DNA of 64,000 nucleotides. It comes from a virus. Its lineage: Duplodnaviria; Caudoviricetes. The position numbers were made by a program, and so were the translations under genes. The notes under the pieces are model-generated. The model ran no database searches. It was not told the origin of the DNA and saw nothing but the letters and a program-made list of their open reading frames with translations. Shown one piece after another: positions 1-18,994 of the stretch. Each line of letters opens with the position of its first letter. Position 1 is the first letter of the stretch. The stretch is from IMG/VR virus record IMGVR_UViG_3300036985_003045, one strand, 5' to 3'.

Positions 1-160
1 TAAACTGAGCAGATTCGTGACCACATTGTGCCAAGAAAGCAGCAACTCTTTTTCTTGTATTAATTTCATACAATGGTAGAACTTTATTAAGAACCTCAAG
101 TAGTGCTTCAGGTTGTTTATTGTTCGGGCATACCTTTTTCAGTTGATCTAATTTTATCAT
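1..160 (-). CDS. GH19 (chitinase-like) endolysin, N-terminal part; runs off the window edge
   Basis: Not in the ORF track. My translation from the ATG at 160 is MIKLDQLKKVCPNNKQPEALLEVLNKVLPLYEINTRKRVAAFLAQCGHESAQF. AAFLAQxGHES is the phage GH19 motif. The ATG overlaps the upstream TGA (ATGA). Confidence 0.8.
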   Translation of the reverse strand, partial: MIKLDQLKKVCPNNKQPEALLEVLNKVLPLYEINTRKRVAAFLAQCGHESAQF

Positions 161-345
161 TTATTTTCTCCTTTACACGGGTTATTTGCGTCTTCTTCTA
201 TTACTAATAATATACAATCTTCTTCTTCACTAATTATACCTATAGCAAATCTATTAAATCCACATTGAATATAAATCGGTTTTTCAGAATCCCGAACTAT
301 TTCATTGAAATCTTTAAGAGATATTTTTATCCTAGGGAGTCGCAT
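157..345 (-). CDS. hypothetical protein (62 aa)
   Basis: ORF coupled to both neighbours; no motif recognised. Confidence 0.55.
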   Translation of the reverse strand: MRLPRIKISLKDFNEIVRDSEKPIYIQCGFNRFAIGIISEEEDCILLVIEEDANNPCKGENK

Positions 346-599
346 AAAGCTCTTAACGGTATCATTGGAATTAATTTATCATTCATCACACTAAATTCTA
401 GATGTTTTTCATAAACAACAAATTCAATCTTTTCCAATACTGTAACACCTATAATAGGAACAGAATCTTTATTAAGTCTTGAGTATATAATTTTACCTTC
501 AGCATATACTTTGCTTGCGACCCAACCTTGAAGTCGTATGTTTACAAATTTAACAGAATCTTCAAGTAACTTTTGATTGCTTAAATTATTAGTATGCAT
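327..599 (-). CDS. hypothetical protein (90 aa)
   Basis: ORF in operon context; no motif recognised. Confidence 0.6.
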   Translation of the reverse strand: MHTNNLSNQKLLEDSVKFVNIRLQGWVASKVYAEGKIIYSRLNKDSVPIIGVTVLEKIEFVVYEKHLEFSVMNDKLIPMIPLRALCDSLG

Positions 600-608
600 T
601 GTTAATTA

Positions 609-899
609 CTATAAAATTATTTTTGAAGTTGGAACTACAATTGGACTAAATACTCGTTTATATTCAGTTACAAGTGCTTCAGCAGGAGTTGCTTCAATAG
701 CTATTGAATGAAAGTATACTTTAATAGTACCTTGTGCAAAAGGCATCACAGGAGCTATAGCAACTCTTACACCTGATTCTGTTTCTTGAAGGACAATATT
801 GGCAGGATTCTTAATTTCATACCATATATTAGTAATATTAACTACTTCACCAATCATATCTTCCCCAATTTGGGATTTAAAAACTCTTATATCACTCAT
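609..899 (-). CDS. conserved T4-like small protein, probable Sm-like beta-barrel
   Basis: The pattern IRVFKSQIGEDMIGEV...IKNP...IAPVMPF...P...L..EY..VF resembles the small protein commonly found near hsp20 in environmental T4-like phages. The fold is inferred. Confidence 0.6.
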   Translation of the reverse strand: MSDIRVFKSQIGEDMIGEVVNITNIWYEIKNPANIVLQETESGVRVAIAPVMPFAQGTIKVYFHSIAIEATPAEALVTEYKRVFSPIVVPTSKIIL

Positions 900-916
900 T
901 ATATTCTCGCTTTAGT

Positions 917-1000
917 AAAAAGGAACCTCCCGTGGTGCGCTTCACGTCCCTTGTCATCCTAAGATGCTTCTATTATGGGCGTAGAGAGGCGTGGGAGGTA
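917..1000 (-). ncRNA. candidate structured small RNA (about 80 nt)
   Basis: 925-999 is 56% GC in an AT-rich genome. It has a closing stem 925-931/993-999 and nested stems, an AATAAATA box at 1005-1012 upstream and a U5 run at 917-921 downstream. Confidence 0.55.
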
Positions 1001-1007
1001 TTATTAT

Positions 1008-1469
1008 TTATTCAGTCAATAATTCAACATCATACTTGCCATCACCAATAAGAATCTTTTTCGGTTTCTTATGCTCTGGAATAACATTTTCAAGATAAAT
1101 GGATAAAATACCATCAATGAATTCCGCATCTTTTACGATTACGGTCTCTGCTAGTTTTATTGTTTTCTTGAATGGTTTTGCACTAATACCTTTATGGAGG
1201 TATTCAACTTCATTATCAAATTCACCTTTAGTACCAGCCATAATAAGAACACAATCTTCAACGGTAATTTCTAGTTCTTCCCTGGAAAAACCAGCAACTG
1301 CCAATTCAACAACATATTCATTGTCATTGTATTTAATGATATTATGGGGAGGATACTTATTTGATAATTGATAGTCACTTGATACTCTTTCCATATCTTT
1401 AAGTAGCCTTTCAATGCCTACGAATTGATTTAGGTGAGCACCAAAAGCCATATGTGCGGTTGTATTCAT
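1008..1469 (-). CDS. hsp20: small heat shock protein Hsp20 (IbpA-like)
   Basis: YPPHNIIK...ELAVAGF...YLHKGIS...DGILSIYLE..IPEHKKPKKI alpha-crystallin signature. Confidence 0.95.
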   Translation of the reverse strand: MNTTAHMAFGAHLNQFVGIERLLKDMERVSSDYQLSNKYPPHNIIKYNDNEYVVELAVAGFSREELEITVEDCVLIMAGTKGEFDNEVEYLHKGISAKPFKKTIKLAETVIVKDAEFIDGILSIYLENVIPEHKKPKKILIGDGKYDVELLTE

Positions 1470-1600
1470 ACTGCGTCTCCATTTCTGCGAGATTAAAATT
1501 TTCTATCCTTACGGCATAGAAGGTTAGGTTCCAGTTACGAATCTGGAATACCTCTTACGTGGGTATCGATCTGCGGACATCCAGGTCCTTCACGCACTAT
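1470..1600 (-). promoter_or_regulatory. multi-hairpin 5' UTR, ROSE-like RNA thermometer candidate
   Basis: Five consecutive hairpins. The last, UCUC(G)CA-GAAA-UG-GAGA (1476-1492), pairs the SD sequence with a bulged G opposite it. Confidence 0.65.
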
Positions 1601-1654
1601 TATTTAAAGTCTATAGTGATAAAGACTACCTACCTCGGGAGAAGGAGTGTTCTT

Positions 1655-1870
1655 TTATTCTTCGTCAACAGTTTCAGGAATTTCAGCCAATATGACTTTT
1701 TCAATTTCTGCAACTTGAGAAGTTCCTTGTGATCTAATTTCATTGATCAATTCTGCAACAACCTCATAAGATTGTTTTGCTAATGATGCTAAAATTGTAT
1801 TAACACCACGTACATTTAGTTTTAAATCAATAAAACTTTCTTCAATTTTCAATTTTTGTTCTTCATTCAT
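1655..1870 (-). CDS. hypothetical protein (71 aa, helical)
   Basis: ORF directly downstream of regA. Confidence 0.7.
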   Translation of the reverse strand: MNEEQKLKIEESFIDLKLNVRGVNTILASLAKQSYEVVAELINEIRSQGTSQVAEIEKVILAEIPETVDEE

Positions 1871-1872
1871 AT

Positions 1873-2283
1873 TTATTTTCTCTTGTTTCCAATGGTATAT
1901 TTTGATGTTAAAGTCCAGTTCTTTTTGTCTTTATAAGAGACAATCTTAATCTGGGATAATGACGCCTTACTTTCTGCTTGCGCAGAATTTACTATAGTTA
2001 AAAGTCCCCAGTCACCTAGCAGACTAGCTATAGCATTTCTTCTCTCAATATCATTATTAGTGATATTGGATTCTTTACCATCCAAAGCAAACAACTCTTT
2101 GAAATGGACGATAAAATATTTGCCTTGCTTATGCAATATATGGCATGATTGATATAGTGTATTATCTTTTTTAGAAGCAATACCAATCCTAGTTAAAGTT
2201 TCACAGACTTTCAAAAATGCATCAGGGTCAGGTAACGTCACCTCAAGCATACTGTCATAATTCCAATCATAAAAAATATCCAT
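1873..2283 (-). CDS. regA: translational repressor RegA
   Basis: FLKVCETLTRIGIAS...LYQSCHILHKQGKYFIVHFKELFALDG. Start moved from 2334 to the ATG at 2283, just after the gp62 stop. Confidence 0.95.
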   Translation of the reverse strand: MDIFYDWNYDSMLEVTLPDPDAFLKVCETLTRIGIASKKDNTLYQSCHILHKQGKYFIVHFKELFALDGKESNITNNDIERRNAIASLLGDWGLLTIVNSAQAESKASLSQIKIVSYKDKKNWTLTSKYTIGNKRK

Positions 2284-2284
2284 T

Positions 2285-2662
2285 TTAATACCCGCCTTTA
2301 TACAATTTCTTTTCAATAATAGCAAGTTGATCATTGGTTAGGATATCCAATACTTGTCTTGCCTTCTCATCGGAATATCTAAAGTATTCCTTAACTAATA
2401 AAAATGATTTAGAGTCTTTATCTTTCTTTGCCCATTTACCAAATCGTTTCTTCTTAGCTATGGTATTTATTAAATATTTAAATTGCATATCATTATCTAA
2501 ATTATAAAATTTATTCATCTCATTAGCATATAAAATAGTATCTGAATGTTGCGACAATCCTCTATTTACCATAAATGAATTATAATCTTTAAGTGCCTGT
2601 GGATCAACAAACAGATTTTCTTTAGTTTGTGTAATTGCAGTAATAAAATCAAATGGATTCAT
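2285..2662 (-). CDS. gp62: clamp loader small subunit
   Basis: YNSFMVNRGLS...ANEMN...QFKYLINTIAKKKRFGKWAK...VKEYFRYSDEKA; synteny with gp44 and regA. Confidence 0.9.
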   Translation of the reverse strand: MNPFDFITAITQTKENLFVDPQALKDYNSFMVNRGLSQHSDTILYANEMNKFYNLDNDMQFKYLINTIAKKKRFGKWAKKDKDSKSFLLVKEYFRYSDEKARQVLDILTNDQLAIIEKKLYKGGY

Positions 2663-2994
2663 TATAAAATTCCTTCATCATCTAATGCAATAGCAAAAGT
2701 TTTATTTGGAAATCTATCTAACAATTTATCTTGTAAAGATTCTATAGAAGTTCCATGTGAAAGATATGTATGATCTTTTAATTTATACATGTAAATGATA
2801 TTGTCATGTACTTCTAAGTACGCCAATATATCATTTACTATTGTTTGATTATCTTCATCTATATATTCATCTTCATCATATTCTATATATAACTCTCCAT
2901 TTTGAAATTTACTTATAGTTCTACGGACTCCATACCAATATCCTATTCCTCCATTCAATAATACTAATATTAAAGTTAGATAATCCATTTCCAT
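2662..2994 (-). CDS. hypothetical protein with N-terminal hydrophobic segment
   Basis: LTLILVLLNGGIGYWYGV followed by RR and an acidic soluble region. Confidence 0.7.
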   Translation of the reverse strand: MEMDYLTLILVLLNGGIGYWYGVRRTISKFQNGELYIEYDEDEYIDEDNQTIVNDILAYLEVHDNIIYMYKLKDHTYLSHGTSIESLQDKLLDRFPNKTFAIALDDEGIL

Positions 2995-3002
2995 ATTGTT
3001 GC

Positions 3003-3956
3003 CTATTTAAATTTACAAGAAGACATTATTTCAACCATTGCTGACATTGTATTTATCTCTTGATCTGCTACAAAGGCACTCTTATATTGATAGTCACCGA
3101 TAATAATAATTAATTGTGGAATACTTGATGGATCTAAAACATTTAATGCATTATCATATAAATGTCTGAATAATGATGATGCATCTGCATCTGCACTAGC
3201 AACCCATTTACGCACAGTAGTAAAATCTTTTTCTTTAAGACCTTTAATTAATTCTTTATAAGAGTCTGCAGATACATTGACAAAAATTCCAGAGTCAATT
3301 TTACCCGCAACAGAATATCTTTGCAATTCATTTAATATCCTTCTATAATCTGGAAAATGTTTTGTTACTAATTCAGCAACAACCTTTGGATCAAACTCAA
3401 TATTTTCTTGTTTCAAGATACGAGTTGCGCGTTTGAAAAACAATGCAGCCATTTCTTGTTTATCTTTAGGATCTATTTTAAAATCTATAATAGCACATCG
3501 TGAATGCAATGGATCTATAATACGATTTTTAAAATTGCAAGTAAATATGAACCGACAGTTATTGCTAAACTCCTCAATGAAAGATCTTAAGGCAGGTTGA
3601 ACTGAATCGGCATTCATATAATCTGCTTCATCAATAATGATAACCTTCTTTGCATCTGTTAGTGATACAGATGAGGCAAATTCTTTTACTGTAGTTCTAA
3701 GAGTATCAATTTTACGACCTTCGTCAGAACCATTGATCATTATATAGTCTGCCCCCACTTCATTACAAAGTGCTTTAGCTATAGTAGTTTTACCTACACC
3801 GGCAGAACCTGTTAATAAAAGCGTAGGTAATTCGCCTTGCTTAATATAATTATTGAATGTAGTTTTAATAGATTCAGGAAGAATACATTCACTGATGGTT
3901 TGCGGGCGGTATTTTTCTACCCACAAAAATTGATTGTCTTTAGATTCGATAGTCAT
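3003..3956 (-). CDS. gp44: clamp loader AAA+ subunit
   Basis: LWVEKYRPQTI, Walker A GSAGVGKTT, Walker B IIIDEAD, SRC motif. Confidence 0.97.
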   Translation of the reverse strand: MTIESKDNQFLWVEKYRPQTISECILPESIKTTFNNYIKQGELPTLLLTGSAGVGKTTIAKALCNEVGADYIMINGSDEGRKIDTLRTTVKEFASSVSLTDAKKVIIIDEADYMNADSVQPALRSFIEEFSNNCRFIFTCNFKNRIIDPLHSRCAIIDFKIDPKDKQEMAALFFKRATRILKQENIEFDPKVVAELVTKHFPDYRRILNELQRYSVAGKIDSGIFVNVSADSYKELIKGLKEKDFTTVRKWVASADADASSLFRHLYDNALNVLDPSSIPQLIIIIGDYQYKSAFVADQEINTMSAMVEIMSSCKFK

Positions 3957-3986
3957 AATGTCTCCATAGTAAATAAGTCATGATAC

Positions 3987-4016
3987 ATTATATCATGACT
4001 TTATCAAAAAGTAAAT
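3987..4016 (-). promoter_or_regulatory. early-type sigma70 promoter for gp44, overlapped by an 11-bp-arm palindrome
   Basis: TTTACT-17-TATAAT with a TG extension; AAGTCATGATA-catta-TATCATGACTT at 3975-4001. Confidence 0.65.
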
Positions 4017-4021
4017 GTATT

Positions 4022-4675
4022 TTAGAACGTACTATCAGCCTCAATTGCACAATAATAAACTAAATCACCAATTGTAGATTCAAATCTAGCTATTCTAGAA
4101 TGAATAGTTACTGTATAATTACCTTGTAGCATTTTTAGGTTTTCAATTTTAATATTAGCTTTAAAAGTTTTATCAGTAGTACCTACAATTGATTCATATA
4201 AATTGCTAGTAGCATTCTTTTTATCGCCGATAGTTAAAGTTAAACTAGTTCCATCGCCTACAATAGAAAGATCAGAAGCTTTTAAAACTCCTGCGGTTTT
4301 TTGAATAGCAGCAAATAATGATTCAGATAAGTCAAAATTAATATCTGCGGCAGGAAATACTATATCTTTACTTGGAGTTTTCAATAAAGATGCTTCGGCC
4401 GCAAAAAATTTAATTCTGTTATTTTTCTCTTGAATATTAACATACTTTTCTTCAAATTCTAATTCAGGATCAGTGAATAAAGAAATTGCTCCTAAAAATG
4501 AATTAAGGTCATATATACCAAATTCAATTGGAAATTGTTCTGCTACGGTTATACTGGAGGCCACAGTTTTGTTTACCGAAGTAGTCTTTAATCTATTACC
4601 AGGACTTAATAATAGATTGCTATTGATTGCCGCATAGTTTTTAAGGATATTAATTGTTTCTTTACTGATTTTCAT
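4022..4675 (-). CDS. gp45: DNA polymerase sliding clamp
   Basis: MKISKETINILKNYAAINSNL...FGIYDLNSFLGAISLF; adjacent to gp44. Confidence 0.95.
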   Translation of the reverse strand: MKISKETINILKNYAAINSNLLLSPGNRLKTTSVNKTVASSITVAEQFPIEFGIYDLNSFLGAISLFTDPELEFEEKYVNIQEKNNRIKFFAAEASLLKTPSKDIVFPAADINFDLSESLFAAIQKTAGVLKASDLSIVGDGTSLTLTIGDKKNATSNLYESIVGTTDKTFKANIKIENLKMLQGNYTVTIHSRIARFESTIGDLVYYCAIEADSTF

Positions 4676-4872
4676 AATGTCTCCATATTTTTAATTTTTC
4701 GTTGTATAATCACTTCAAGGTAATTTGCCAGATCCATCGCTTCTTCTTGAGCATGGATCAACCATTGTAACTCTGTTAAGTCTTCTCTTTCTAGAGAAAC
4801 TCCATATTTCTCCAAACCAAACTTAGCTCTTTTTTGTATTTTTTCACATACTGCATCTTCGTACTTACTCAT
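4672..4872 (-). CDS. small all-alpha protein, possibly MazG-like NTP pyrophosphohydrolase fold
   Basis: GLEKYGVSLER.DL...WL.HAQEEAMDLANYLE: EE..D acidic helix pattern. Confidence 0.45.
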   Translation of the reverse strand: MSKYEDAVCEKIQKRAKFGLEKYGVSLEREDLTELQWLIHAQEEAMDLANYLEVIIQRKIKNMETL

Positions 4873-4892
4873 AATATCTCCATAAAATAATA

Positions 4893-4922
4893 ATTATATT
4901 ACATACTCCCATAAAAGTAAAC
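4893..4922 (-). promoter_or_regulatory. early-type promoter
   Basis: GTTTACT...TATAAT (TTTACT-17-TATAAT), followed by a GGAG SD. Confidence 0.65.
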
Positions 4923-4938
4923 TGAATAATTCATTTTA

Positions 4939-6054
4939 TTAGTAAGGGATTTCATCAAATTCATCAATAGATATAATTACTTCTACAGGATCTATTTCAG
5001 AAGTTTGTGGTTCAGACATTTTATCAAGTAAATCAATAAATGCTGCCTTAGTTTGAGAGTCAAAACGATTACAGCATAATTGAACTGCTTTTGTTTTATT
5101 ACCAAAGATAGCAAAAGCTCGAACAATATGAACCATACGACGAGTGGTAATTAACTCATCAACTCCGCCATCATCATAAGTTTTGCGAATAGCATCTGCC
5201 CATTTAACCAATAACTCAGCAAATGGTTCATCAACACATTTGAATTGTTCCATTAGATTCTTAACTATTTTTAATTCGATGTTTGCACTTGGATATTCTT
5301 GTTCAAATGTAACCGCAAATCGTTCAAGAAATGCTTCATTCAATACATTAGTACCAATATAACGACCATCATCAGAACCTTTACCTTTAGTATTGGCTGT
5401 AGCAAGGATATTGAATCCTTCTGCTGGAATGATCATTTCATTCTTCAACTTGAAGTAGTATGGTTTACCTTCAAGAATAGGTTGTAAGCATAATAAAGTA
5501 TTTGCTGAACCAGCATCAATCTCATCAAGTAACAAAGTAGTACCTGTGCGCATCGCAACCAACACAGGTCCTTCAACAATCTCAACATTACCTTCTTGAA
5601 GAGTTTTTGAACCAATCAACTGCTCTTCGTCAGTCATCTGGTTCAAGTTAACCCTAATCAAAGGTTTTTTATGTTTAGCGCATATTTGCTCAACCATGGT
5701 TGATTTACCATTACCAGTAGGTCCGTAAATATACGAGGGATAAAAAATGCCGGATTTAATAATAGATTCTAGATCTTTGAAGTTACCAAATGGTACAAAG
5801 TTAGGATCTTTTTCTGGCACGAGAGAGGTTCCACCTTTAGGAATGGAAACTATTTTCAGTTCTTTCATAGGCATTTCTGCAGTTGGTAATCTATAAACAC
5901 CTCTAGCAACTTTGTTTTGCATTAACCAATCTGGCCAATCGCAATTCATTTGATCTTTTACTTCTTTGAGTTGCTTACGAGTGATAGTACCGGTTGTTTC
6001 AGCATCAGGAAACATTTGGTACATAGTAGGAATAAAGTTTGGAATGGTTTTCAT
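4939..6054 (-). CDS. MoxR/CbbQ/CobS-like AAA+ ATPase
   Basis: Walker A GPTGNGKS, Walker B LLLDEID, ATANTKG and NEAFLERF motifs; similar to the 'CobS' of marine T4-like phages. Confidence 0.9.
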   Translation of the reverse strand: MKTIPNFIPTMYQMFPDAETTGTITRKQLKEVKDQMNCDWPDWLMQNKVARGVYRLPTAEMPMKELKIVSIPKGGTSLVPEKDPNFVPFGNFKDLESIIKSGIFYPSYIYGPTGNGKSTMVEQICAKHKKPLIRVNLNQMTDEEQLIGSKTLQEGNVEIVEGPVLVAMRTGTTLLLDEIDAGSANTLLCLQPILEGKPYYFKLKNEMIIPAEGFNILATANTKGKGSDDGRYIGTNVLNEAFLERFAVTFEQEYPSANIELKIVKNLMEQFKCVDEPFAELLVKWADAIRKTYDDGGVDELITTRRMVHIVRAFAIFGNKTKAVQLCCNRFDSQTKAAFIDLLDKMSEPQTSEIDPVEVIISIDEFDEIPY

Positions 6055-6089
6055 AATATAGTTTTTCTCATTTGTTAGTTTATGGATCT

Positions 6090-6118
6090 ATTATAACACG
6101 TTTTCATCAAATGTAAAC
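6090..6118 (-). promoter_or_regulatory. T4-type early promoter
   Basis: GTTTAC-17-TATAAT with TGn extended -10. Confidence 0.75.
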
Positions 6119-6141
6119 GTTTATTTTAAAATAATTTCACT

Positions 6142-8274
6142 TTAGGCCACATAACCGATAAATTTATTCAATAATAAACGGTTCACTTGACGTCCTTCCA
6201 TCATTTTAGTGAACTTATTTGCAATAGAAGAAGTTGATTGTTTACTTGAAACTTCCAATTCTATGTCTTTAATTCTCAAAGACTTTGCAGGAACTAAGAA
6301 TAAATCATCACGACCTTTAGTTTTGAAAGAAGCAAAACCATTTAGGCGAACTTCTTTTCTAACTTCATCGATATCTATATCATAGATACCATTATTATAT
6401 GATGCTGAATTAATTTCTGAACGACCTAAAGAACCTGCAACATAAAACCCAATATTAGCAACATTATATCTATCTTTTATCATTTTTAATAAAGTATTAG
6501 TTTGTTCAGTAGCATTATACTGAAAATCATAATTTATTTTAGTTATTGGATCAACTAAGAAATTCTTACCATAATGTGGAGCATTATAAGCACGTAAAGT
6601 ACTTCCTGCTCCATCAGTTAATGTAATAAAGGACATCTTTTCGACATTATTAGTATTCATAAATTTGCCTATATGATCAGTCATATAAGCTAATGCTTCA
6701 TTTAATGGAGTTCCACCTAATGAGTATTCACTTTTTCTAGTAAACTTATAAGTATTAAACAGTCTTTTGGCCATATCATTAAAATCTTTATTTGACATTT
6801 TATGACTAAAGAATTCCAACAAAGCACAGTCTTTAGTTGCGTTATTTAATAAATTTGTAGCTAATCTAGTTTGTTGAAATCTATCTTTTCTTCTATTTGA
6901 ATAAGGTTTATTATCATAACAGTTATAATAATAATCTGAAAATGCTAATACTTGAAATGGAATTTGCAATCTATGACAAAACATTGATAATGTAGTAACT
7001 TGTTGAATTACATCTCCAATAACTTCATTCATAGAACCTGACCAATCTATCAAAAAGATCATTCCATGCTTTTTACCATCTTGAGTGGTAGTAATTCTTT
7101 TAAATAAGTCATCATTTAATTGATAACCCCAAATCTTTTTCATATCCAATGAACCTGATTTTGATACTTGATTACGTTTATATTGAGTTGCAGCTTTTTT
7201 CATCTCAAATTCTTTTATGAGATAATTAACAGTTTTCAATGTATTTGACTTGAATTTAATATATTCTACATCCGATCTTCTAGGAATATCTTCTTTATAA
7301 CCCCAACGATTTAATATAAATTCTTGTTCAGTTTCAGTTTCAGATAAAATGGTTTTATAACCTACAATTGTATCAGGATCATAATCAGTATCTAATCTTA
7401 AATAATTATATTCTGCATTCATATCCACAGAATTATCTAAATTTTCCATTAAAGATTTATTAGTTTTAGACTCTAATTCTTCTTCTATTTCTTCAGGAGT
7501 TTTACTACCTTGATCACTAGCAACATTATCTTCTGGTTGTTGTTGATCATCTGAATTACTATTATCTCCTTCAGATTCTTCAGGAGTTTTACTACCTTGA
7601 TCACTAGCAACATTATCTTCTGGTGGTTGTTGTTGATCATCTGAATTACTATTATCTTCTTCAGATTCTTCAGATTCTTCAGTATTTTCATTATTAACTG
7701 ATGAATCTTTACTTTCTGAGTTTTCTAATTCATTTTTACAGAATTCATAAATATCTTTTGCTAATTCAACAACTTCAATTGAAGTTTCAGTTTTTTCTGC
7801 ACGAGTAACAAATACTTTTTCTTGTTCTGAAAATGAAACTCCCGAAGAAATACCTACTTTGAACCAAAGGTTCATTCTATCAATAAGATTAAGAGTTCTT
7901 ATATTTTTAATTTCCTTTACACCAAAGAAGTCTCTTTCATTAAGTTGTCTATAACCTTCAATCATAGTCTTTTTAAGACCGGGATATTTACGTTTCATTA
8001 ATTTTTCAACACGAACATCTTCAACTACATTAATATAGTCATGGATTTTGTAATCCTCTTTTGAAGCCTCCATCATATCCATAGTTGTATACAATGCATG
8101 ACCTACTTCATGACCTACAAGCATACTCTCTATTTCAGGAGTCATATGTTTAAAGATAGGTAAAGTTAGTTGTCTTGATTTTACATTAAAAGAGGCAGTT
8201 TTAACTGCAGCTTTAACTACAGTTAAGTTTTCTGTTGCGAGGAGTTTTGCAGTAAGGTCTATTGCTGTATTCAT
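6142..8274 (-). CDS. HExxH metallopeptidase-like plus vWA (MIDAS) protein, CobT-like AAA partner
   Basis: HEVGH...NVVEDVRVE at the N terminus, an acidic linker, then DWSGSM...GGTPL...LTDG. Confidence 0.85.
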   Translation of the reverse strand: MNTAIDLTAKLLATENLTVVKAAVKTASFNVKSRQLTLPIFKHMTPEIESMLVGHEVGHALYTTMDMMEASKEDYKIHDYINVVEDVRVEKLMKRKYPGLKKTMIEGYRQLNERDFFGVKEIKNIRTLNLIDRMNLWFKVGISSGVSFSEQEKVFVTRAEKTETSIEVVELAKDIYEFCKNELENSESKDSSVNNENTEESEESEEDNSNSDDQQQPPEDNVASDQGSKTPEESEGDNSNSDDQQQPEDNVASDQGSKTPEEIEEELESKTNKSLMENLDNSVDMNAEYNYLRLDTDYDPDTIVGYKTILSETETEQEFILNRWGYKEDIPRRSDVEYIKFKSNTLKTVNYLIKEFEMKKAATQYKRNQVSKSGSLDMKKIWGYQLNDDLFKRITTTQDGKKHGMIFLIDWSGSMNEVIGDVIQQVTTLSMFCHRLQIPFQVLAFSDYYYNCYDNKPYSNRRKDRFQQTRLATNLLNNATKDCALLEFFSHKMSNKDFNDMAKRLFNTYKFTRKSEYSLGGTPLNEALAYMTDHIGKFMNTNNVEKMSFITLTDGAGSTLRAYNAPHYGKNFLVDPITKINYDFQYNATEQTNTLLKMIKDRYNVANIGFYVAGSLGRSEINSASYNNGIYDIDIDEVRKEVRLNGFASFKTKGRDDLFLVPAKSLRIKDIELEVSSKQSTSSIANKFTKMMEGRQVNRLLLNKFIGYVA
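7490..7670. repeat. 87-bp tandem duplication (29-aa acidic unit) inside the vWA gene
   Basis: EESEGDNSNSDDQQQPEDNVASDQGSKTP twice; one copy has an extra Pro codon. Confidence 0.95.
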
Positions 8275-8304
8275 AATATAATCTCTTTATCAATTTATGA
8301 GTCT

Positions 8305-8333
8305 ATTATATCACCTTTTCAGAGAATGTAAAC
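8305..8333 (-). promoter_or_regulatory. T4-type early promoter
   Basis: GTTTAC-17-TATAAT with TGn extension. Confidence 0.75.
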
Positions 8334-8361
8334 ATTTATTTTCACAATTGGAAAAATTACC

Positions 8362-8440
8362 TAAAGTGTAAAAAAGTGCACTTTTAAGCAATTGATTATA
8401 TTATACTTTTTTTATTAAAAAGTGCGTTTTTTACACTTTA
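8362..8440. repeat. imperfect 26-bp inverted repeat in an AT-rich intergenic region
   Basis: taaagtgtaaaaaagtgcacttttaa (8362-8387) versus ttaaaaagtgcgttttttacacttta (8415-8440). Confidence 0.85.
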
Positions 8441-8525
8441 TGGTAGTATCTGCACCCTTAAAAATAAAAAGTGTGCACAGAACTGATTATTTTTTTATTT
8501 ATTTAATTAAATCAATATGTTATTA

Positions 8526-10244
8526 TTAAACTAACACTGAAAATTCATTCCGTTTTTCCACCTTCAGGATTGAATGAAATTTGTCATTTAATATGTCCCC
8601 TTTATGACTGATGACAAATACATTTGTATCCTTCGAGACCTCATCTAGTAATTGAAGCAATAAATCTGTAGCACTTGCATCTAAAGATGAATCAAATATT
8701 TCATCCAATATTAACAAATTAGTATTAACTGAATTCTTCAATCGGGCGATTTGTCTCCAAGCAAATAGAATTGCAACGTCAAGTTTACGTTTTTCTCCTT
8801 CTGAGAAAGAGGCATAGGTAAACTCATCTCTAAATCTAGATTTGATAGTTTCATTGAATGACTCATCTAATTCAAACTTAATATAAGTGTCCATAATTGC
8901 CAGATACTTATTGATTAAGGTATTCATTACAGGTAGATACTCACGAATAATAGCTGTCTTAATTCCTGTATCTTTGAGTAACTGATTTGAAATATCCTGC
9001 AAACCTCTAAGTTCCATCAAGGATGTTTTCTCAGTTATCTTTTCAACAGTACTAGTCGCAAGTTCTTTTAGTTTACGTTTCTCTTCATCTACATTGGTAG
9101 TATTTTGTTCAACTGATTCGATTTCTAAAAGAAACTGAGAGTTCTGTTTGTTTAGTAAAGTAACAGTACTATTTGTTGTTGATAGTTCAATATTCTTATC
9201 AGTGATATTATTTTGTATAACTTGAATATTTTTTAAAGATTCTTTTAGATTAAAAAGTGCAACTTCTAATGCTATAAGTTTAGAATCTTCCTCATCTATT
9301 TTAGATTGAATATCTGCCACTACTATTTGTTTATAATCCTCGGTAATTTCCTGTGAACATGTTGAACATACATCATTCTCATAAAAGAAATGTTTGTGTG
9401 TTACATGATGATTATGGATTGCAGTAACTTTGCTATGTAACCTATTAACATCTTGGATATTTTGATCAAGAAAATCTTTATCGCTAATCTTTTCTCTTAA
9501 ATGAACTAATTCTGCCGCTAGTAAATCAGAAGTTACTTGAGATTGCTCAATTTGATAATCATTCTTAGTAATCTTATCTAATAATAATCTAACAGTATCA
9601 GATTTTGCAGTATTCATTGCTGAAATTATAGCAGTCTGAGACTCAACTTTTGCTCGAGCTATTTTAATATCTGATTCTAATCTTGCAATAGAATCTTTTG
9701 TTGATGCTACTCGATCCTTCAATATTTGATTCATTACCGAGAAGATACGAATATCCAGAATATCTTCAACAACTTCTCTACGTTGATTAGTTTTCAACTG
9801 CATGAATGGAACAAAAGATGCTGAACCTAGAATAACTACCTGTGTAAAGGTTTTATAGTTAAGTCTAAGTATCTGTTGTTCTAAAATCTTTTGGTAATCT
9901 TTATTAGCGGCTTCTTGATTTAATAAGACATCATTACAATATATCTCAAAGATTCCTGGTTTAATACCTCGAATAACTTTATATGTCTTATTACCAATAA
10001 TGAATTCACATGTTACTAATAGTTGTTTGCCATTAATAGAGTTAACTAATTGACTTAGTTTAATATCTCTGAAAGGTTTACCAAATAAACAAAATGTAAT
10101 GGCATCAAGTATGGTAGATTTACCATCACCGTTTTTACCCATAATTAGAGTAGTTCTTGACTTATCTAATAAGATTTTATTTTCAACATTTCCAGTTGAT
10201 AAGAAGTTTTTGTAACTGATGTACTTAAAATGTAATGTTGACAT
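8526..10244 (-). CDS. gp46: Rad50/SbcC-like recombination ATPase
   Basis: GKNGDGKST, CxxC zinc hook (CSTC), FSEGEKRK, LLILDEIFDSSLD. Confidence 0.97.
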   Translation of the reverse strand: MSTLHFKYISYKNFLSTGNVENKILLDKSRTTLIMGKNGDGKSTILDAITFCLFGKPFRDIKLSQLVNSINGKQLLVTCEFIIGNKTYKVIRGIKPGIFEIYCNDVLLNQEAANKDYQKILEQQILRLNYKTFTQVVILGSASFVPFMQLKTNQRREVVEDILDIRIFSVMNQILKDRVASTKDSIARLESDIKIARAKVESQTAIISAMNTAKSDTVRLLLDKITKNDYQIEQSQVTSDLLAAELVHLREKISDKDFLDQNIQDVNRLHSKVTAIHNHHVTHKHFFYENDVCSTCSQEITEDYKQIVVADIQSKIDEEDSKLIALEVALFNLKESLKNIQVIQNNITDKNIELSTTNSTVTLLNKQNSQFLLEIESVEQNTTNVDEEKRKLKELATSTVEKITEKTSLMELRGLQDISNQLLKDTGIKTAIIREYLPVMNTLINKYLAIMDTYIKFELDESFNETIKSRFRDEFTYASFSEGEKRKLDVAILFAWRQIARLKNSVNTNLLILDEIFDSSLDASATDLLLQLLDEVSKDTNVFVISHKGDILNDKFHSILKVEKRNEFSVLV

Positions 10245-11302
10245 TATGCCATATCCAAATTTACCGCTTCAGTATAAAGTGATTGAATGTAAGATTTTAT
10301 CTTTGATGTTTCTACATCAGTTTCTATAGATTCAATATAATGGTTTAAAACAGATTGAGTATCTTCTAATTTAATATCATCAGATAGTTCACCTGAAGAG
10401 AAGTCTCCAATGTCCTCAATAATTTTAATTTCATGTGCACCTTTATTATATAATTTAGTCAGGAATGTATCATATTTGTAATAATCAGTTTTGTTAACTA
10501 CTACAAGTTTAACATAAGTGTCTTGAATATCTATAGTACTTAAGTCAATTGGTTCTTGATTTAAATCATTATATTCTAATTTGACAAATAATTTATAAGG
10601 ATTCTCAATAAACTCTAAATCTCGTGTAGCAAGATCAAATATATGAAATCCTTTTGGATCGGCATAATCTTGCCAAGTTATTTCGTATGGAGTTCCAAGA
10701 TAAGTAATATTATTCTTTGTAGACCTATGATGATAATGACCTGAGAAGGTTTTATCATATCGATCAAACATCAAACTTGACATTCCTCCATGTGATTCTA
10801 CACCTCTATACATTTGAAATCCGCCAATCTCGAAATGACCCATGCAAATATCAGATAGCGAACTTCTAATCTCTTCATAAGATTCTTCATAATTGTCATT
10901 ACAGATCCAAGGTATCATAGCTATACTAATACCTTTGATAGAAACTGTTTGAGCATATTCTATGAGATGAATATTATCATATTCTGCCAATAGCAAATTA
11001 GGAGTGTTTGGAGATAAGGTGTTTTTAAAATATATGTCATGATTACCAATTATCATATAGACAGTTATATTTCTGTCTTTTAATTCATTAAAGAAAAATA
11101 ATTTACTTTGTTCTATTACATAATTATTAGTAAATTTACGGGTATCAAATGTATCACCTAAAATAATAACTGTGTCAATATTATTTTGGTCAAGATATGG
11201 AAAGAATACCTCATTATAAAATTTACGTTGATGGTCAATTATAATTGTAGAACCTGTTCTAGCACCAAAATGTTGGTCAGTAATTAAACAAACCTTATTC
11301 AT
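10244..11302 (-). CDS. gp47: Mre11/SbcD-like recombination nuclease
   Basis: DQHFG, GDTFD, GNHD and SGHYH phosphoesterase motifs. Confidence 0.97.
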   Translation of the reverse strand: MNKVCLITDQHFGARTGSTIIIDHQRKFYNEVFFPYLDQNNIDTVIILGDTFDTRKFTNNYVIEQSKLFFFNELKDRNITVYMIIGNHDIYFKNTLSPNTPNLLLAEYDNIHLIEYAQTVSIKGISIAMIPWICNDNYEESYEEIRSSLSDICMGHFEIGGFQMYRGVESHGGMSSLMFDRYDKTFSGHYHHRSTKNNITYLGTPYEITWQDYADPKGFHIFDLATRDLEFIENPYKLFVKLEYNDLNQEPIDLSTIDIQDTYVKLVVVNKTDYYKYDTFLTKLYNKGAHEIKIIEDIGDFSSGELSDDIKLEDTQSVLNHYIESIETDVETSKIKSYIQSLYTEAVNLDMA

Positions 11303-11492
11303 TCAACCTCCATCCTTCGATACTAGTTTGTTCAAACGTTTTAAGTTGACACTTACATCCTTGAGCTATTGCATACTTGATTGTATGTTCTTTTTCAGAA
11401 TTTTCTATAGTTTTCCAATCTTCCCATCTTTTAGATTCTTCATCAAATAAACGATATTGCTTTATAACTTCATTCATAATATATGCTCTCAA
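11295..11492 (-). CDS. hypothetical protein (65 aa)
   Basis: ORF coupled between gp55 and gp47. Confidence 0.6.
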   Translation of the reverse strand: MRAYIMNEVIKQYRLFDEESKRWEDWKTIENSEKEHTIKYAIAQGCKCQLKTFEQTSIEGWRLNE

Positions 11493-11495
11493 TAA

Positions 11496-12035
11496 TTAAT
11501 TATAAAAATCTTCTAAAGGTGAGTAAACTTCTTTTTTAATCTTTTCTTTTTTAGGTTTTTCAAATGATGAACCATCAAAGTTATTATACGCTTTCATGTA
11601 TTCGATATAGTTATTTGTGAAGTCTCCTTGTTCATCATGAGCTTGTAGTTCAGTAAGATCTAAAGCATTTGAGGTAAGTAGTTTGCTTCTAATGTATACT
11701 TGTCTTTTCTCTTTTGCTATTCTACGTAGAAATGCAAAATAAACAATTTGAGTAAAATAGGAAAAAGGATTATGTGTTTTATTCTCATCGAAATTATCAA
11801 TAACCTTTAAACAATTTTCGACTCCATCAAGTATCATATCCTCTTTAAATGAATATCCATTAAAGCTTCTAAGATTGGAGAAATTAGTAGCAATCTTAAA
11901 TATACATCCACCAATATATTCAGAGATTCTAGGTTTGGGAATTCCCTTTGATTCACAATCCTTAACTAAAAGGATACGTTCTTGCATAGCTACAAAGAAT
12001 TCTTCATTATTAATATAATTTAGTTTCTTACTCAT
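11496..12035 (-). CDS. gp55: late transcription sigma factor
   Basis: NYINNEEF...YIGGCIFKIA...YSFKEDMILDGVENCL...NPFSYFTQIVYFAFLRRIAKEKRQ. Confidence 0.96.
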   Translation of the reverse strand: MSKKLNYINNEEFFVAMQERILLVKDCESKGIPKPRISEYIGGCIFKIATNFSNLRSFNGYSFKEDMILDGVENCLKVIDNFDENKTHNPFSYFTQIVYFAFLRRIAKEKRQVYIRSKLLTSNALDLTELQAHDEQGDFTNNYIEYMKAYNNFDGSSFEKPKKEKIKKEVYSPLEDFYN

Positions 12036-12065
12036 TTCTACTCCCTCAATTTATAATATAGAACT

Positions 12066-12095
12066 ATTATATCCTATGATTGATAAAAAGTACAT
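12066..12095 (-). promoter_or_regulatory. early/middle-type promoter for gp55
   Basis: TGTACT-17-TATAAT. Confidence 0.55.
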
Positions 12096-12117
12096 TAAAA
12101 TATATTTTTATTTTACT

Positions 12118-12165
12118 GTTTACAACTGTTTACTTTTGTGATATACTGGTTATACCAGGTTTTTC
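12118..12165 (+). repeat. 48-bp dispersed repeat, copy A (promoter plus hairpin, antisense orientation)
   Basis: 46/48 identical to 55373-55420; contains TTTACA-17-TATACT and CTGGT-TAT-ACCAG. Confidence 0.9.
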
Positions 12166-12169
12166 TAGG

Positions 12170-12532
12170 TTAATGTATTGTTTCATTAGATAGATTAATA
12201 CTAATTGTTTCTAAATCATATTCCTCTTCAGGTAATACTAATTGACCTATTTGAACATCTATAAGACGTTTATAGTATTCAATAGTAGATTCATTTAAAG
12301 GTTTAATGATTATGACATCATCCTTCCATACTGTAAAGATTTGTTCGTCAGTAAAAGAACACCATGGAGAACCGGCTAATACTTCTTTATTTTTACCTTC
12401 AAATTCAAAGTTGACGGTTTTCATTTGGATAGGGTACATAATTGTAAATTTATGATCATCCTCACCTATTTTTACACTTATGATGTTATCTCCATTTACA
12501 AGTTTTAAGGTAATATATTCATGCTCTAACAT
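12170..12532 (-). CDS. conserved T4-like hypothetical protein downstream of uvsW (possible Sm-like fold)
   Basis: ITLKLVNGDNIIS...PW..FTDEQIF pattern and synteny. Confidence 0.6.
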   Translation of the reverse strand: MLEHEYITLKLVNGDNIISVKIGEDDHKFTIMYPIQMKTVNFEFEGKNKEVLAGSPWCSFTDEQIFTVWKDDVIIIKPLNESTIEYYKRLIDVQIGQLVLPEEEYDLETISINLSNETIH

Positions 12533-14016
12533 TTTAACTCCACTTCAACGATGTTAACTAAAAATTGTTCTGTAATATATATCTTATATCTCTCAATGCC
12601 ATGGGACAAAGTAGTATTTTTCCAAGACTTCCAGTGCAAATCATCAACTAAATCAAAAAGTCGGCATTCATTTTTACCATCATTTAAACGTAAACCTCTA
12701 CCTATAGATTGCAGATTTCTTATTTTAGATTTTGAAGGATGGGCAAATATAATGTTTTCTATTGATGGCATATTAGTACCTGTACTCATAGTCGCGTACG
12801 AGGCTACTATTATAGCATTATTATATTTGCTACAAACATTTCTAATCTCTTCACGATCTTTTGTATCAACTCCGCCATGAATATAAAAGACTGGTCTATC
12901 TTGATGTACTTTATTTTTTATATCTTCATATATGACTTTGCCATGCTTTTGTACATAGTTAAAAAGTACAAGAGTATTGCCTGTAGTAGATATTGCTAAA
13001 TTTCGTATAAATTTATTTCTGACAGGATTTGTAACTAACCAATCAAGTTCTTTGGTATATTCAGTACCTTTAAACATCCTACAAGTTTCTTCATCATATT
13101 TAAGAATAAGTTGTTTGATTTTTAAATTAACTACCGAACCTTCATCCATTAATTTTTTAGTTGTAGTTACCTGATATACCGGGCCAAATAATCCTTCAAG
13201 AGTTAGTTTATTAGTTTTAGAACTTTCATCAATAGTACCTGTAGCTCCAATTCTGTATTTGGTATTAACACATTTTTCCATAATACCTGAAATAGAAGCT
13301 GCCTTGGCAAGATGGCATTCATCAACCATAGCCACATCAAATTGCTGATAAAAGGATTTTTGTTTTATAGTAATTAATGATTGCCATGTAGAGATAAGAA
13401 CGTTTTTTGTAAAATCTTTTGTAAATCCTGAATATAGTTTTTGTACATTATGTTCAACATTAAATCCATTTGCACTTGAATAATCAGCAAAATCTGAATA
13501 CATTTGCTCAACAAGCATAGTATTAGGTACTATCAGAAGTAATTTTCTATTTGCATTTAAATGCCATCTCATTATAGCATACAAAATACCGGATTTACCT
13601 GAAGCGGTAGGACTTAATAATGTTACTCTATTTCTATTAAGCGCTTTTAAAAGAGCATCTACCTGATAATCCCTAAGCGAAATTGGTAAACCTCGCGCAG
13701 ATAAGTTAAGACTGTCGGCAAACAATTGAATATCTTGGGCAGAATATGTATTTGAATTCTCTATACCCGCACTAATAGTTAATTCATAATCATTTCTATT
13801 TGCAAATTCTTTAACATATTGTAATAAACCAGCATAGAGATTTTTAGTTTGAAGATTGTATAATCTAACATACCCATCCCATATACCTGCTTTATATGCC
13901 GGCATGAACTTATAACCTGAGATTCTAAACTTAAAGAAGTCAGATAGTTCTTGTTCTATAGAAGAATCTGAAAATATTCTAATATAGACTTCATTGTGTT
14001 TTTCTATTGTAATCAT
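12526..14016 (-). CDS. uvsW: SF2 DNA helicase UvsW
   Basis: LRDYQ, SPTASGKS, VDECH, LQSIGRGLR. Confidence 0.96.
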   Translation of the reverse strand: MITIEKHNEVYIRIFSDSSIEQELSDFFKFRISGYKFMPAYKAGIWDGYVRLYNLQTKNLYAGLLQYVKEFANRNDYELTISAGIENSNTYSAQDIQLFADSLNLSARGLPISLRDYQVDALLKALNRNRVTLLSPTASGKSGILYAIMRWHLNANRKLLLIVPNTMLVEQMYSDFADYSSANGFNVEHNVQKLYSGFTKDFTKNVLISTWQSLITIKQKSFYQQFDVAMVDECHLAKAASISGIMEKCVNTKYRIGATGTIDESSKTNKLTLEGLFGPVYQVTTTKKLMDEGSVVNLKIKQLILKYDEETCRMFKGTEYTKELDWLVTNPVRNKFIRNLAISTTGNTLVLFNYVQKHGKVIYEDIKNKVHQDRPVFYIHGGVDTKDREEIRNVCSKYNNAIIVASYATMSTGTNMPSIENIIFAHPSKSKIRNLQSIGRGLRLNDGKNECRLFDLVDDLHWKSWKNTTLSHGIERYKIYITEQFLVNIVEVELKC

Positions 14017-14456
14017 TAGTTGCCAGCTAAAAACTTTTTATGTTCTAGAACTGTTTTTAATTGCCAATCTCTAGCCTTGATTTGGCCTAGGATAGATTCA
14101 AGTAGGTAATTCATAGTTTGCAAATATTCTATTTTAACTTTCATATTATTAAGATCAGTATCTCCATCAAGAAATTGATCCATCTCATTCTTCATAGGTT
14201 TGACACCTTGCCATTGTTCCCAATTCAGTATAGATAATTCATCTCTAGAAAGTTCACCTCGATAATACCTAAACTTAGTCTTTTTTAGAACATTATAATC
14301 ATTATTATATTTTGTAACTTTAAGTTTTGCCTGCATTAAATATCTTATATACTTAGCATGCAACTTTGGAACTCGAATGGATTCATTCGAGATATGATTG
14401 TCATCCATTACAGAATCGTCATCCCATTCTGATAAAAGTTCATCAATTGTAGCCAT
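14016..14456 (-). CDS. uvsY: recombination mediator UvsY
   Basis: PKLHAKYIRYL...KFRYYRGEL...IKARDWQLK. Confidence 0.93.
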   Translation of the reverse strand: MATIDELLSEWDDDSVMDDNHISNESIRVPKLHAKYIRYLMQAKLKVTKYNNDYNVLKKTKFRYYRGELSRDELSILNWEQWQGVKPMKNEMDQFLDGDTDLNNMKVKIEYLQTMNYLLESILGQIKARDWQLKTVLEHKKFLAGN

Positions 14457-14471
14457 AATATCCTCAAAAAA

Positions 14472-15002
14472 TTATATAAATTCGTATCTACTTATTTTAA
14501 ATGTTACATTCCCAACTAAATATGATACGTCTGTATTTGTAGATAGAAAATTCATTGAACTTAAATTCAATGGTAGAATATCTATAAACTTTACAGTTTT
14601 TACCGGTAGATTATTACTTCCTAATATCTGTAAAGTAGCATCAGAATATTCTTTACTTGTTCTACTATACCCTGTATCTTGTAAATTAATAAAATCAGTA
14701 AATTGATTATTATCTTCTGGAAAACCAAGTCCTATCATCCAATCATATACAGCAATATAATTACTCATATTTTGATCTATAATAAACTGTATATTTAGAT
14801 CTTCAAATGAAAGTATTTCCCCACTAAATGGCAAAGCCGATAAAGGAGTGTTTACTTCAAATGTTGGTAAAGACATACCTGGAAGAGTAACTTCTTGACA
14901 AAAGAATGATACTTCCGGTAATTTTGAAATAGAAAAATTAAACCCATTACTTGATAGTGGATTTATATTTGTTGGAAACGGACATGTAGTTGTTATTGCC
15001 AT
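14472..15002 (-). CDS. gp3: tail completion / tube terminator protein
   Basis: NPLSSNGFNFSISKLPEVSFFCQEVTLPG...YDWMIGLGFP; synteny after gp23. Confidence 0.85.
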   Translation of the reverse strand: MAITTTCPFPTNINPLSSNGFNFSISKLPEVSFFCQEVTLPGMSLPTFEVNTPLSALPFSGEILSFEDLNIQFIIDQNMSNYIAVYDWMIGLGFPEDNNQFTDFINLQDTGYSRTSKEYSDATLQILGSNNLPVKTVKFIDILPLNLSSMNFLSTNTDVSYLVGNVTFKISRYEFI

Positions 15003-15018
15003 TATAGTACCTCTGATC

Positions 15019-15026
15019 TATTTATA
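15019..15026 (-). promoter_or_regulatory. gp55 late promoter TATAAATA
   Basis: Exact T4 late consensus upstream of gp3. Confidence 0.8.
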
Positions 15027-15031
15027 ACAAT

Positions 15032-15057
15032 AAAAAAAGGAGTCCGAAGACTCCTTT
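15032..15057 (-). terminator. rho-independent terminator after gp23
   Basis: GGAGUC-UUCG-GACUCC followed by a U7 tract. Confidence 0.93.
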
Positions 15058-15084
15058 CTTATCAAACGTATTTAAAACTAAAAC

Positions 15085-16488: not shown

Positions 16489-16514
16489 CTTAAGTTTCCT
16501 TATTTTTATTAAAA

Positions 16515-17615: not shown

Positions 17616-17645
17616 TTATATACTCCTAATTTTGATATATCTTAT

Positions 17646-17653
17646 TATTTATA
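17646..17653 (-). promoter_or_regulatory. late promoter TATAAATA
   Basis: Exact consensus upstream of gp22-gp23. Confidence 0.8.
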
Positions 17654-17665
17654 AAAATTAAACTT

Positions 17666-18316: not shown

Positions 18317-18317
18317 A

Positions 18318-18992: not shown

Positions 18993-18994
18993 CT

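Follow-up and report, generated by a model that had tools for sequence, protein, structure and literature searches.

A homologue of the abiF antitoxin RNA at the hsp20 terminator of an uncultured T4-like phage, with a possible role as a decoy for host AbiF

We describe a structured RNA element on the minus strand of a 64,000-nucleotide stretch of viral DNA (Caudoviricetes; IMG/VR record IMGVR_UViG_3300036985_003045), which is referred to here as the window. The element, at 925–998, has its 5′ end (998) 9 nt past the stop codon of hsp20 and is, on the evidence of its sequence, almost certainly a homologue of the abiF-type antitoxin RNA (Rfam RF03085) with an extra helix, P3, in its terminal loop. 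On balance we favour the view that this phage-borne homologue serves both as the terminator of hsp20 and as an orphan antitoxin, that is, as a decoy against the AbiF of the host. AbiF was reportedly recognised in 2025 as a type III toxin–antitoxin defence with the abiF motif as its antitoxin, and is said to be a likely ancestor of Cas13. It is an Abi_2-family HEPN RNase of a type III toxin–antitoxin or abortive-infection system, and the abiF motif is its non-coding RNA antitoxin, which neutralises it by direct binding in cis and in trans (PMC12373285). In the structure of PbAbiF with its RNA AbiFr (PDB 8VZ6), C32 and U38 in the single-stranded bulge obstruct the active site, and AbiFr is in addition processed by AbiF (PMC12737573).

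Identification of the abiF-type RNA

A permissive Rfam scan of positions 500–2000 placed RF03085 end to end at 925–998 on the minus strand (33.3 bits, E = 9e-4), with the cmscan alignment covering model positions 1–37 and leaving a 39-nt insertion in the terminal loop. The Rfam gathering cut-off for this family is 37 bits, and at the gathering threshold the whole window has no match, RF03085 appearing only under E-value thresholds; the elements of relatives score 31.2–33.3 bits, with a range of 26–33 across close relatives. An earlier reading of the window made from the letters alone (the first-pass annotation) had drawn this hairpin as a candidate small RNA (sRNA), could match it to no known RNA family and had proposed an Infernal/Rfam search; that search has now returned abiF, and the RNA is not without a family after all.

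Read 5′ to 3′ along the minus strand from 998 to 925, the element consists of CCUCCC-A-CGC-CUCUCUACG, about 36 nt, and GAA-GCG-CACCAC-GGGAGG-U, and is followed by UCCUUUUU. The 5′ strand of P1, CCUCCC (993–998), pairs with GGGAGG (926–931) over 6 bp in the predicted fold, and is separated by an unpaired A at 992 (placed by the cmscan alignment) from P2, in which CGC (989–991) pairs with GCG (938–940). The conserved loop segment CUCUCUACG at 980–988 corresponds to the family consensus CUCUCAACG, and is followed by the clade-specific 36-nt insertion at 944–979 which forms P3. This helix is predicted to have a base of ACGCCC/GGG-ACGU, an AU-rich internal loop and an apical hairpin, CAUC-UUAG-GAUG, with the ACG of the loop segment pairing with 944–946 inside the inserted helix. 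On the 3′ side lie the single-stranded bulge CACCAC (932–937), which is CACCAU or CACCUU in relatives, and the closing U (925), with which the U-run UUCCUUUUU (917–925) forms the tail of an intrinsic terminator. The bulge and the closing U correspond to the nucleotides by which AbiFr is reported to block the AbiF active site. Bacterial motifs end in the same type of tail, GGTTnCTTTTTT.

The element shares with the abiF motif, as known from RF03085, the AbiFr of PbAbiF and RCd22 of the Clostridioides difficile phages phi027 and phiC2, a 6-bp P1, a bulged A and a 3-bp P2 (nGC/GCn), the A and P2 being invariant in 45 bacterial motifs, as well as a loop starting CUCUCnACG, a 5–6-nt 3′ bulge starting CACC, a closing U and a U-rich tail. 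Covariation, which the first-pass annotation had named as a check, is seen in P1 (CCUCCC/GGGAGG here, CCCCUG/CGGGGG in L410, GCCCCC/GGGGGC in L420 and CCUCCU/AGGAGG in L010) and is lacking in the apical part of P3. In contrast to RF03085, in which the loop is about 11 nt, the loop of the window element is interrupted by the 36–39-nt helix, with a score below the cut-off. The element is also a single copy and, unlike the family, it stands at the 3′ end of a phage hsp20 rather than as the 5′ leader of a toxin gene: the gene downstream is not an abiF gene (Abi_2, PF07751) but Sm-like.

RNAfold of the minus strand gives a hairpin of −23 to −25 kcal/mol with the closing stem CCUCCC/GGGAGG, the CGC/GCG and ACG-CCC pairs and the CAUC-UUAG-GAUG apex just as first drawn. 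The energy is not exceptional when compared with shuffled sequences (z = −1.67, with 12 of 200 shuffles as stable, and both strands alike), and stability alone is thus no argument. The GC-rich island noted earlier (put at 56%) has a computed GC content of 0.57 in a window of 32%, and the U-run is directly 3′ of the stem as had been claimed. The first-pass annotation had been uncertain of the strand, as some pairs form as G–U wobbles on the plus strand; this is settled as minus because the family match, the U-run and the gene orientation agree.

Bacterial counterparts nearly identical to the window sequence, flanks included, are found amongst the abiF motifs of the Verrucomicrobiota. When a 24-nt 5′ block and a 27-nt 3′ block that include the flanks are compared, 45 of the 51 positions are identical to a Luteolibacter motif (L269) and to viral motifs, the matching parts being P1, the bulged A, P2, the loop start CUCUCUACG, the CACCAC bulge, the closing U and both flanks. 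In about 100 genomes of the Luteolibacter order, the RF03085 matches of at least 31 bits (among those listed, and excluding that of a phage contig described below) adjoin an Abi_2 gene detected by Pfam; in the exceptions, G024, G087 (which has a tandem pair of motifs) and G006, Pfam detected no such gene next to the RNA. Genuine motifs with an Abi_2 neighbour score as little as 27 bits. A pattern scan that took one genome for each species gave 113 stretches (80 of them shown as loci), which are mostly abiF motifs and give the extended consensus CAACAACACC-P1-A-CGC-CUCUCYACG-AU-GCG-CACC-NN-P1′-UUNCUUUUUU. The P1 variant CCUCCC/GGGAGG occurs in bacteria chiefly in the Verrucomicrobiota (Luteolibacter, Akkermansiaceae and Chthoniobacteraceae). 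Phage lineages differ only at the last two bulge positions (CACCAC, CACCAU and CACCUU), and the same positions vary in bacteria.

It should be noted that MAFFT misaligned the bulge forms of 5 nt and 6 nt relative to each other, and that motifs this short are beyond BLAST (blastn of a 60-nt standard motif gave two weak matches only). An exact-word scan with a 16-mer of the 5′ half also matched unrelated coding DNA by chance, and long-gap word matches in genome contigs were likewise chance matches with no P1; both were set aside.

The long insertion has been seen only in eight IMG/VR contigs of the window's clade, in L102 and in the variant L415–L419. In the bacterial genome G025, the abiF RNA that immediately precedes an Abi_2 gene has a helix capped by UUCG at the corresponding position of the loop (that of G006 is similar), and a third helix there is thus compatible with a working system. 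In the L415 variant, the apical half of P3 has two substitutions with which another local pairing is favoured in the predicted fold. In the G025 RNA (L407; G025:C252, minus strand 1141–1097) and in the bacterial abiF RNA at L192:994–1038, the loop is 8 nt longer and holds a small extra helix; these RNAs score 32–34 bits, below the Rfam cut-off, which indicates that the RF03085 model under-calls loop-expanded members.

Sequence constraint and the same site in related phages

Constraint was assessed in a 1.1-kb alignment of three lineages (the window, L001 and L005) in which the background divergence is 11–12% for hsp20 DNA, 7–17% for the downstream gene and 15–25% for the spacers. The 74-nt element has 2 variable sites against about 15 expected with a 20% background (binomial P = 1.3e-5), and is the most conserved segment of that length in the alignment; the variable sites are confined to the 3′ bulge (932–937). 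Unpaired positions show as little variation as paired ones, which argues for a constraint beyond what a mere terminator needs, and the earlier claim of a discrete, sequence-constrained structured RNA that is more than an ordinary terminator is upheld by these counts. A comparison with L415 gives 94.6% identity for the element, 85% for hsp20 and 68% for the downstream gene.

We collected relatives through Hsp20 and through the 96-aa protein encoded downstream (a metagenome scan with Hsp20 added two close relatives and no more), and in every one the site between the two genes holds a hairpin and a U-run, in graded forms. L001, L003, L005–L009, L081, L089 and L102 have the long form of the window, and L415–L419 have a long variant with four changes, of which two are substitutions in the insert, one is in the CUCUC loop and one is in the variable bulge. 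L410–L414 have a 37-nt motif of standard architecture (26.5 bits) with the loop CUCUCAAAGAA, the bulge CACCAU and a P1, CCCCUG/CGGGGG, which covaries relative to that of the window. In L004 and L420 the loop is replaced by a different one and P1, P2 and the CACC bulge are retained, while L002, L010–L013, L103 and L422 have plain perfect terminators without motif features.

This series bears on a simpler explanation, which we consider rather unlikely, in which the element is only the intrinsic terminator of hsp20 and its abiF-like sequence was captured by transfer or descent with no further function. The hairpin with the same base and the U-run at the site in every relative, several of them plain and perfect (L002, L010–L013 and L103), speak for this, as do the terminator-like U-run in which bacterial abiF motifs themselves end and the unremarkable stability of the fold. 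The element is indeed like an intrinsic terminator in having a GC-rich stem and then a U-run 9 nt past a stop codon; unlike a plain one, its hairpin is irregular and comprises three helices and two internal loops, and its unpaired bases and loops are under sequence constraint. What a terminator requires is pairing, whatever the sequence; the unpaired A, the CUCUCU segment, the bulge with CACC and the AU-rich loops of P3 are nevertheless all invariant between lineages whose flanking genes diverge by 12–17% and whose spacers diverge by 15–25%.

Two further groups of relatives also argue against a terminator and nothing more. The distant T4-like contigs L358, L389 and L390, in which Hsp20 is 39%, RegA 64% and the clamp loader 53% identical to those of the window, retain a motif of standard architecture at the same site, about 80 nt past hsp20, and here it scores above the threshold (43.9–44.3 bits). 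Past this first motif there is a second abiF-like, loop-expanded hairpin (L390:2816–2865, plus strand, and likewise in L358 and L389; 20.5 bits), which in L390 has a CCCCCGG...CCGGGGG stem, a CUCUCU loop start, an 18-nt loop expansion and a U-run, and the pair is reminiscent of RCd22 with its two motifs. The second group consists of L409 and L411: here hsp20 and the motif are 0.95 kb apart, separated by a terminator belonging to hsp20 and by a 250-aa gene on the opposite strand, and homology to L410 resumes exactly at TGAATAAATTATAAC. The motif is kept although hsp20 has a terminator of its own, and the RNA is thus retained independently of either neighbour.

We also note that L390 has a perfect TATAAATA just past the hsp20 stop codon, some 70 nt upstream of the first motif. 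The 250-aa open reading frame (ORF; L409:570–1322, minus strand, and in L411) is of unassigned family, the 3′ end of hsp20 differs in these contigs and has its own simple terminator, and the insertion looks like a mobile cassette.

Transcription of the element

The GC-rich hairpin followed by UUCCUUUUU, 9 nt past the hsp20 stop codon and on the coding strand, has the make-up of an intrinsic terminator; it was missed by a simple terminator scanner because the loop limit of the latter is 8 nt. RNA-library contigs cover the element contiguous with hsp20 (one of 889 nt from a freshwater-sediment metatranscriptome spans 757–1642 and one of 151 nt spans 887–1022), although assembled contigs cannot show strand, ends or transcription.

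The first-pass annotation had read the element as a stand-alone late sRNA transcribed from a late-promoter box, AATAAATA, at 1005–1012 on the minus strand. The box is present there but its role as a promoter is not borne out, as it overlaps the hsp20 stop codon (GAA TAA ATA), is not enriched in the window (20 matches compared with 21.8 ± 4.5 expected) and reads AATAAATT, with T as its last base, in L005–L008, L081, L410 and L415. A T4-type late-promoter unit, in the sense of a conserved and enriched box of the TATAAATA type, was thus not found, and a promoter scanner gave promoter-like sites at chance level. Of the original proposal the structured RNA stands; the reading of it as a new, stand-alone RNA made from a late promoter is not supported as it was put, the RNA being of the RF03085 type and occupying the hsp20 terminator site.

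That proposal, taken as a stand-alone late sRNA of about 80 nt which starts from AATAAATA at the foot of the stem and would act as a riboregulator, perhaps with the Sm-like neighbour, seems to us improbable. The box ends 6 nt before P1, which resembles the leader of about 8 nt of bacterial and viral abiF RNAs, the block of TGAATAAATTATAAC and motif is kept in L409 and L411 at 0.95 kb from hsp20 and behind the terminator of that gene, orphan motifs of the standard form have promoters of their own in other phages, and the neighbouring protein has an Sm-like fold. However, the box is at chance frequency and amounts to the hsp20 stop codon and an AT-rich spacer, its last base is T in the contigs named above, no antisense target or seed was identified, and the Sm-like gene is absent beside the motif in the L390 clade and present in relatives with a plain terminator only. 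A separate transcript is possible in view of the L409 and L411 block and of the sigma-70-type promoters of the orphans in other phages.

Absence of the toxin gene and orphan motifs in viruses

We built a hidden Markov model (HMM) from 49 AbiF proteins encoded downstream of bacterial motifs, and this detects AbiF in 66 bacterial loci. Neither this model nor Pfam found Abi_2 or AbiF in the six frames of the window, the AbiF HMM had no match in the related phage loci, and Pfam did not find Abi_2 in the genome bins G001 and G002 or in five related viral records. The same was seen in viruses more widely, as none of 80 IMG/VR loci with a standard motif (L313–L392) has an AbiF-like ORF by the AbiF HMM; these loci fall into 22 flank clusters with a GC content of 38–68%, and 68 of them have at least 1 kb of sequence downstream. 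Many of the viral orphan motifs have their own TTGACA-17-TAnnAT promoter and a CAACAACA leader, and several of the clusters look, from their sequences, like stand-alone sRNA genes of about 55 nt.

Some of the viral orphan motifs adjoin tRNAs (L362 directly), as in the T4-like cyanophage S-CREM1, for which an orphan abiF sRNA has been annotated without a function (PMC9964418). S-CREM1 is like the window in having an abiF-type RNA in a T4-like myovirus without an abiF gene; the S-CREM1 copy differs in being of standard form (51.6 bits) with no loop insertion, and in its position in an island of tRNAs and non-coding RNAs rather than after hsp20. In the literature covered, which does not include Zilberzwige-Tal et al. 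2025, we found no test of an AbiF decoy, and the S-CREM1 orphan was the only one reported.

The S-CREM1 and L362 motifs lie in tRNA islands, where processing signals are common, and this lends something to a further explanation in which the RNA serves some other phage-encoded partner as antitoxin or regulator, or is a recognition or processing signal for a host factor other than AbiF. We regard this as highly improbable: no HEPN or Abi_2-like ORF is found near the motif in the phage contexts examined, and, whereas the genes around it change from clade to clade, the RNA retains precisely those features which bind AbiF.

A host lead

A contig of 103,585 bases (G001:C1, with loci L395–L400), the largest of a Luteolibacter genome bin, is 90% identical to the window over the 1.1-kb region tested. 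It is phage-like throughout and has 31–33% GC compared with 58–61% for the other contigs of G001, and is either a host-linked phage or a binning artefact. Three genomes of the genus are 100% identical over 3-kb loci to Luteolibacter sp. records. Abi_2 is present in 17 of 61 genomes of the genus, with an abiF RNA match directly upstream in most.

Proposed function

We return to the reading favoured at the outset, of a terminator that is also a decoy. The element would at a minimum be transcribed as the 3′ terminus of the hsp20 mRNA, with the hairpin and U-run acting as an intrinsic terminator, a step for which the anatomy and the synteny with plain terminators argue. The stable 3′ RNA would then act as an orphan antitoxin that binds the AbiF of the host and keeps the nuclease blocked, and this would matter once the antitoxin RNA of the host is no longer replenished during infection. 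Because the phage has no AbiF gene, an orphan antitoxin is the most likely role for the RNA, and a decoy best explains the sequence constraint, the retention at one site in distant T4-like phages and the failure to find an AbiF gene taken together. The same logic reportedly holds for the pseudo-ToxI of Pectobacterium phage phiTE, which is said to mimic a type III antitoxin RNA against ToxIN and so to suppress abortive infection with a phage copy of a host RNA antitoxin without the toxin. The two cases differ in that the toxin is of the ToxN family rather than AbiF and the phiTE RNA consists of pseudoknot repeats; and while the function of pseudo-ToxI was reportedly shown at the bench, we infer the anti-defence step for the window element by analogy.

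A number of points weigh against this reading. The score of 33.3 bits is below the Rfam cut-off of 37, a shortfall that is explained by the extra 36–39-nt helix in the terminal loop. The insertion itself lies in a highly conserved loop and is predicted to pair the loop ACG, and binding to AbiF might be abolished by it; the compared relatives provide no covariation in support of the apical part of P3, and the L415 variant has a C to A change within CUCUC. Motif features are lost in close relatives (L002, L010–L013 and L422), and to judge from these sequences the RNA is dispensable in some lineages, while the identity seen in others could in principle come from recent exchange and not from purifying selection. 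The G001 genome itself (80% complete) is without AbiF, and a search of the CRISPR-spacer type with positions 1–20000 against 201 genomes of the Luteolibacter genus gave marginal matches only (23–48 nt, E 0.002–0.009), from which no host link follows. Finally, we infer Luteolibacter as the host, and binning is weak evidence.

A broader and more tentative proposal, which we would put at somewhat short of an even chance, is that many environmental phage lineages carry toxin-less AbiF antitoxin RNAs as a general RNA-based counter-defence, with the three-helix form of the window as a functional and possibly broadened or stabilised decoy built into a terminator, and with Luteolibacter (Verrucomicrobiota) as the host of this T4-like phage. 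The counter-defence part is based on at least 22 IMG/VR flank clusters, which include two freshwater T4-like myovirus clades with the RNA just past hsp20. An antitoxin RNA without its toxin in a phage would be the simplest imaginable counter-measure to AbiF. New here are the persistence of the motif at a single syntenic position in T4-like phages with an Hsp20 identity of only 39%, and a series of variants (standard-length, loop-expanded, loop-replaced and decayed) which maps the selected parts to P1, P2, the CACC bulge and the closing U. The finding shows in addition that the Rfam cut-off misses loop-expanded abiF variants, and offers a host lead for an uncultured freshwater myovirus.

Neighbouring genes and sequence context

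The left end of the window holds T4-type replication genes on the minus strand, including clamp-loader genes (with a match to phrog_225 at 2285–2662). They are accompanied by regA (1873–2334; Pfam Translat_reg, 1.3e-48), a 71-aa ORF listed between regA and hsp20, and hsp20 itself (1008–1469; Pfam HSP20, E = 2.4e-14) with the element at its 3′ end, all on the minus strand. A tRNA scan of 1–3000 found no tRNA, and blastn of 600–1500 against isolated phages gave no match.

The 96-aa gene downstream of the element (609–899, minus strand) matches phrog_527 (2.9e-10) and has no Pfam match. The earlier description of it as Sm-like holds at the level of the fold: the AF2 model of the protein is a small β-barrel with a C-terminal helix (pLDDT 78), and its best match in the PDB is 3BY7 (E = 2.7e-3, 22% identity), a metagenomic protein described as 'structurally similar to Sm/LSm-like RNA-binding proteins'; spliceosomal Sm/LSm proteins rank next. 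From this model the gene could possibly encode an RNA-binding phage protein adjoining a structured RNA with a U-rich 3′ end; we treat it as a neighbour of the hairpin and not as a part of the same system.

On the other side of hsp20, the 185-nt spacer 5′ of the gene (1470–1654, minus strand) has a higher GC content than its surroundings, with a fold z-score of only −1.41. It was considered as a second abiF-like copy and rejected, having no Rfam match at E up to 10 and no motif features. The spacer is 85–95% conserved across most relatives and is replaced in L003 (about 51% identity). In two runs from a single study, the RNA-library contigs break off at 1642 and share an identical loose end, suggesting a strain-variable junction at this position.

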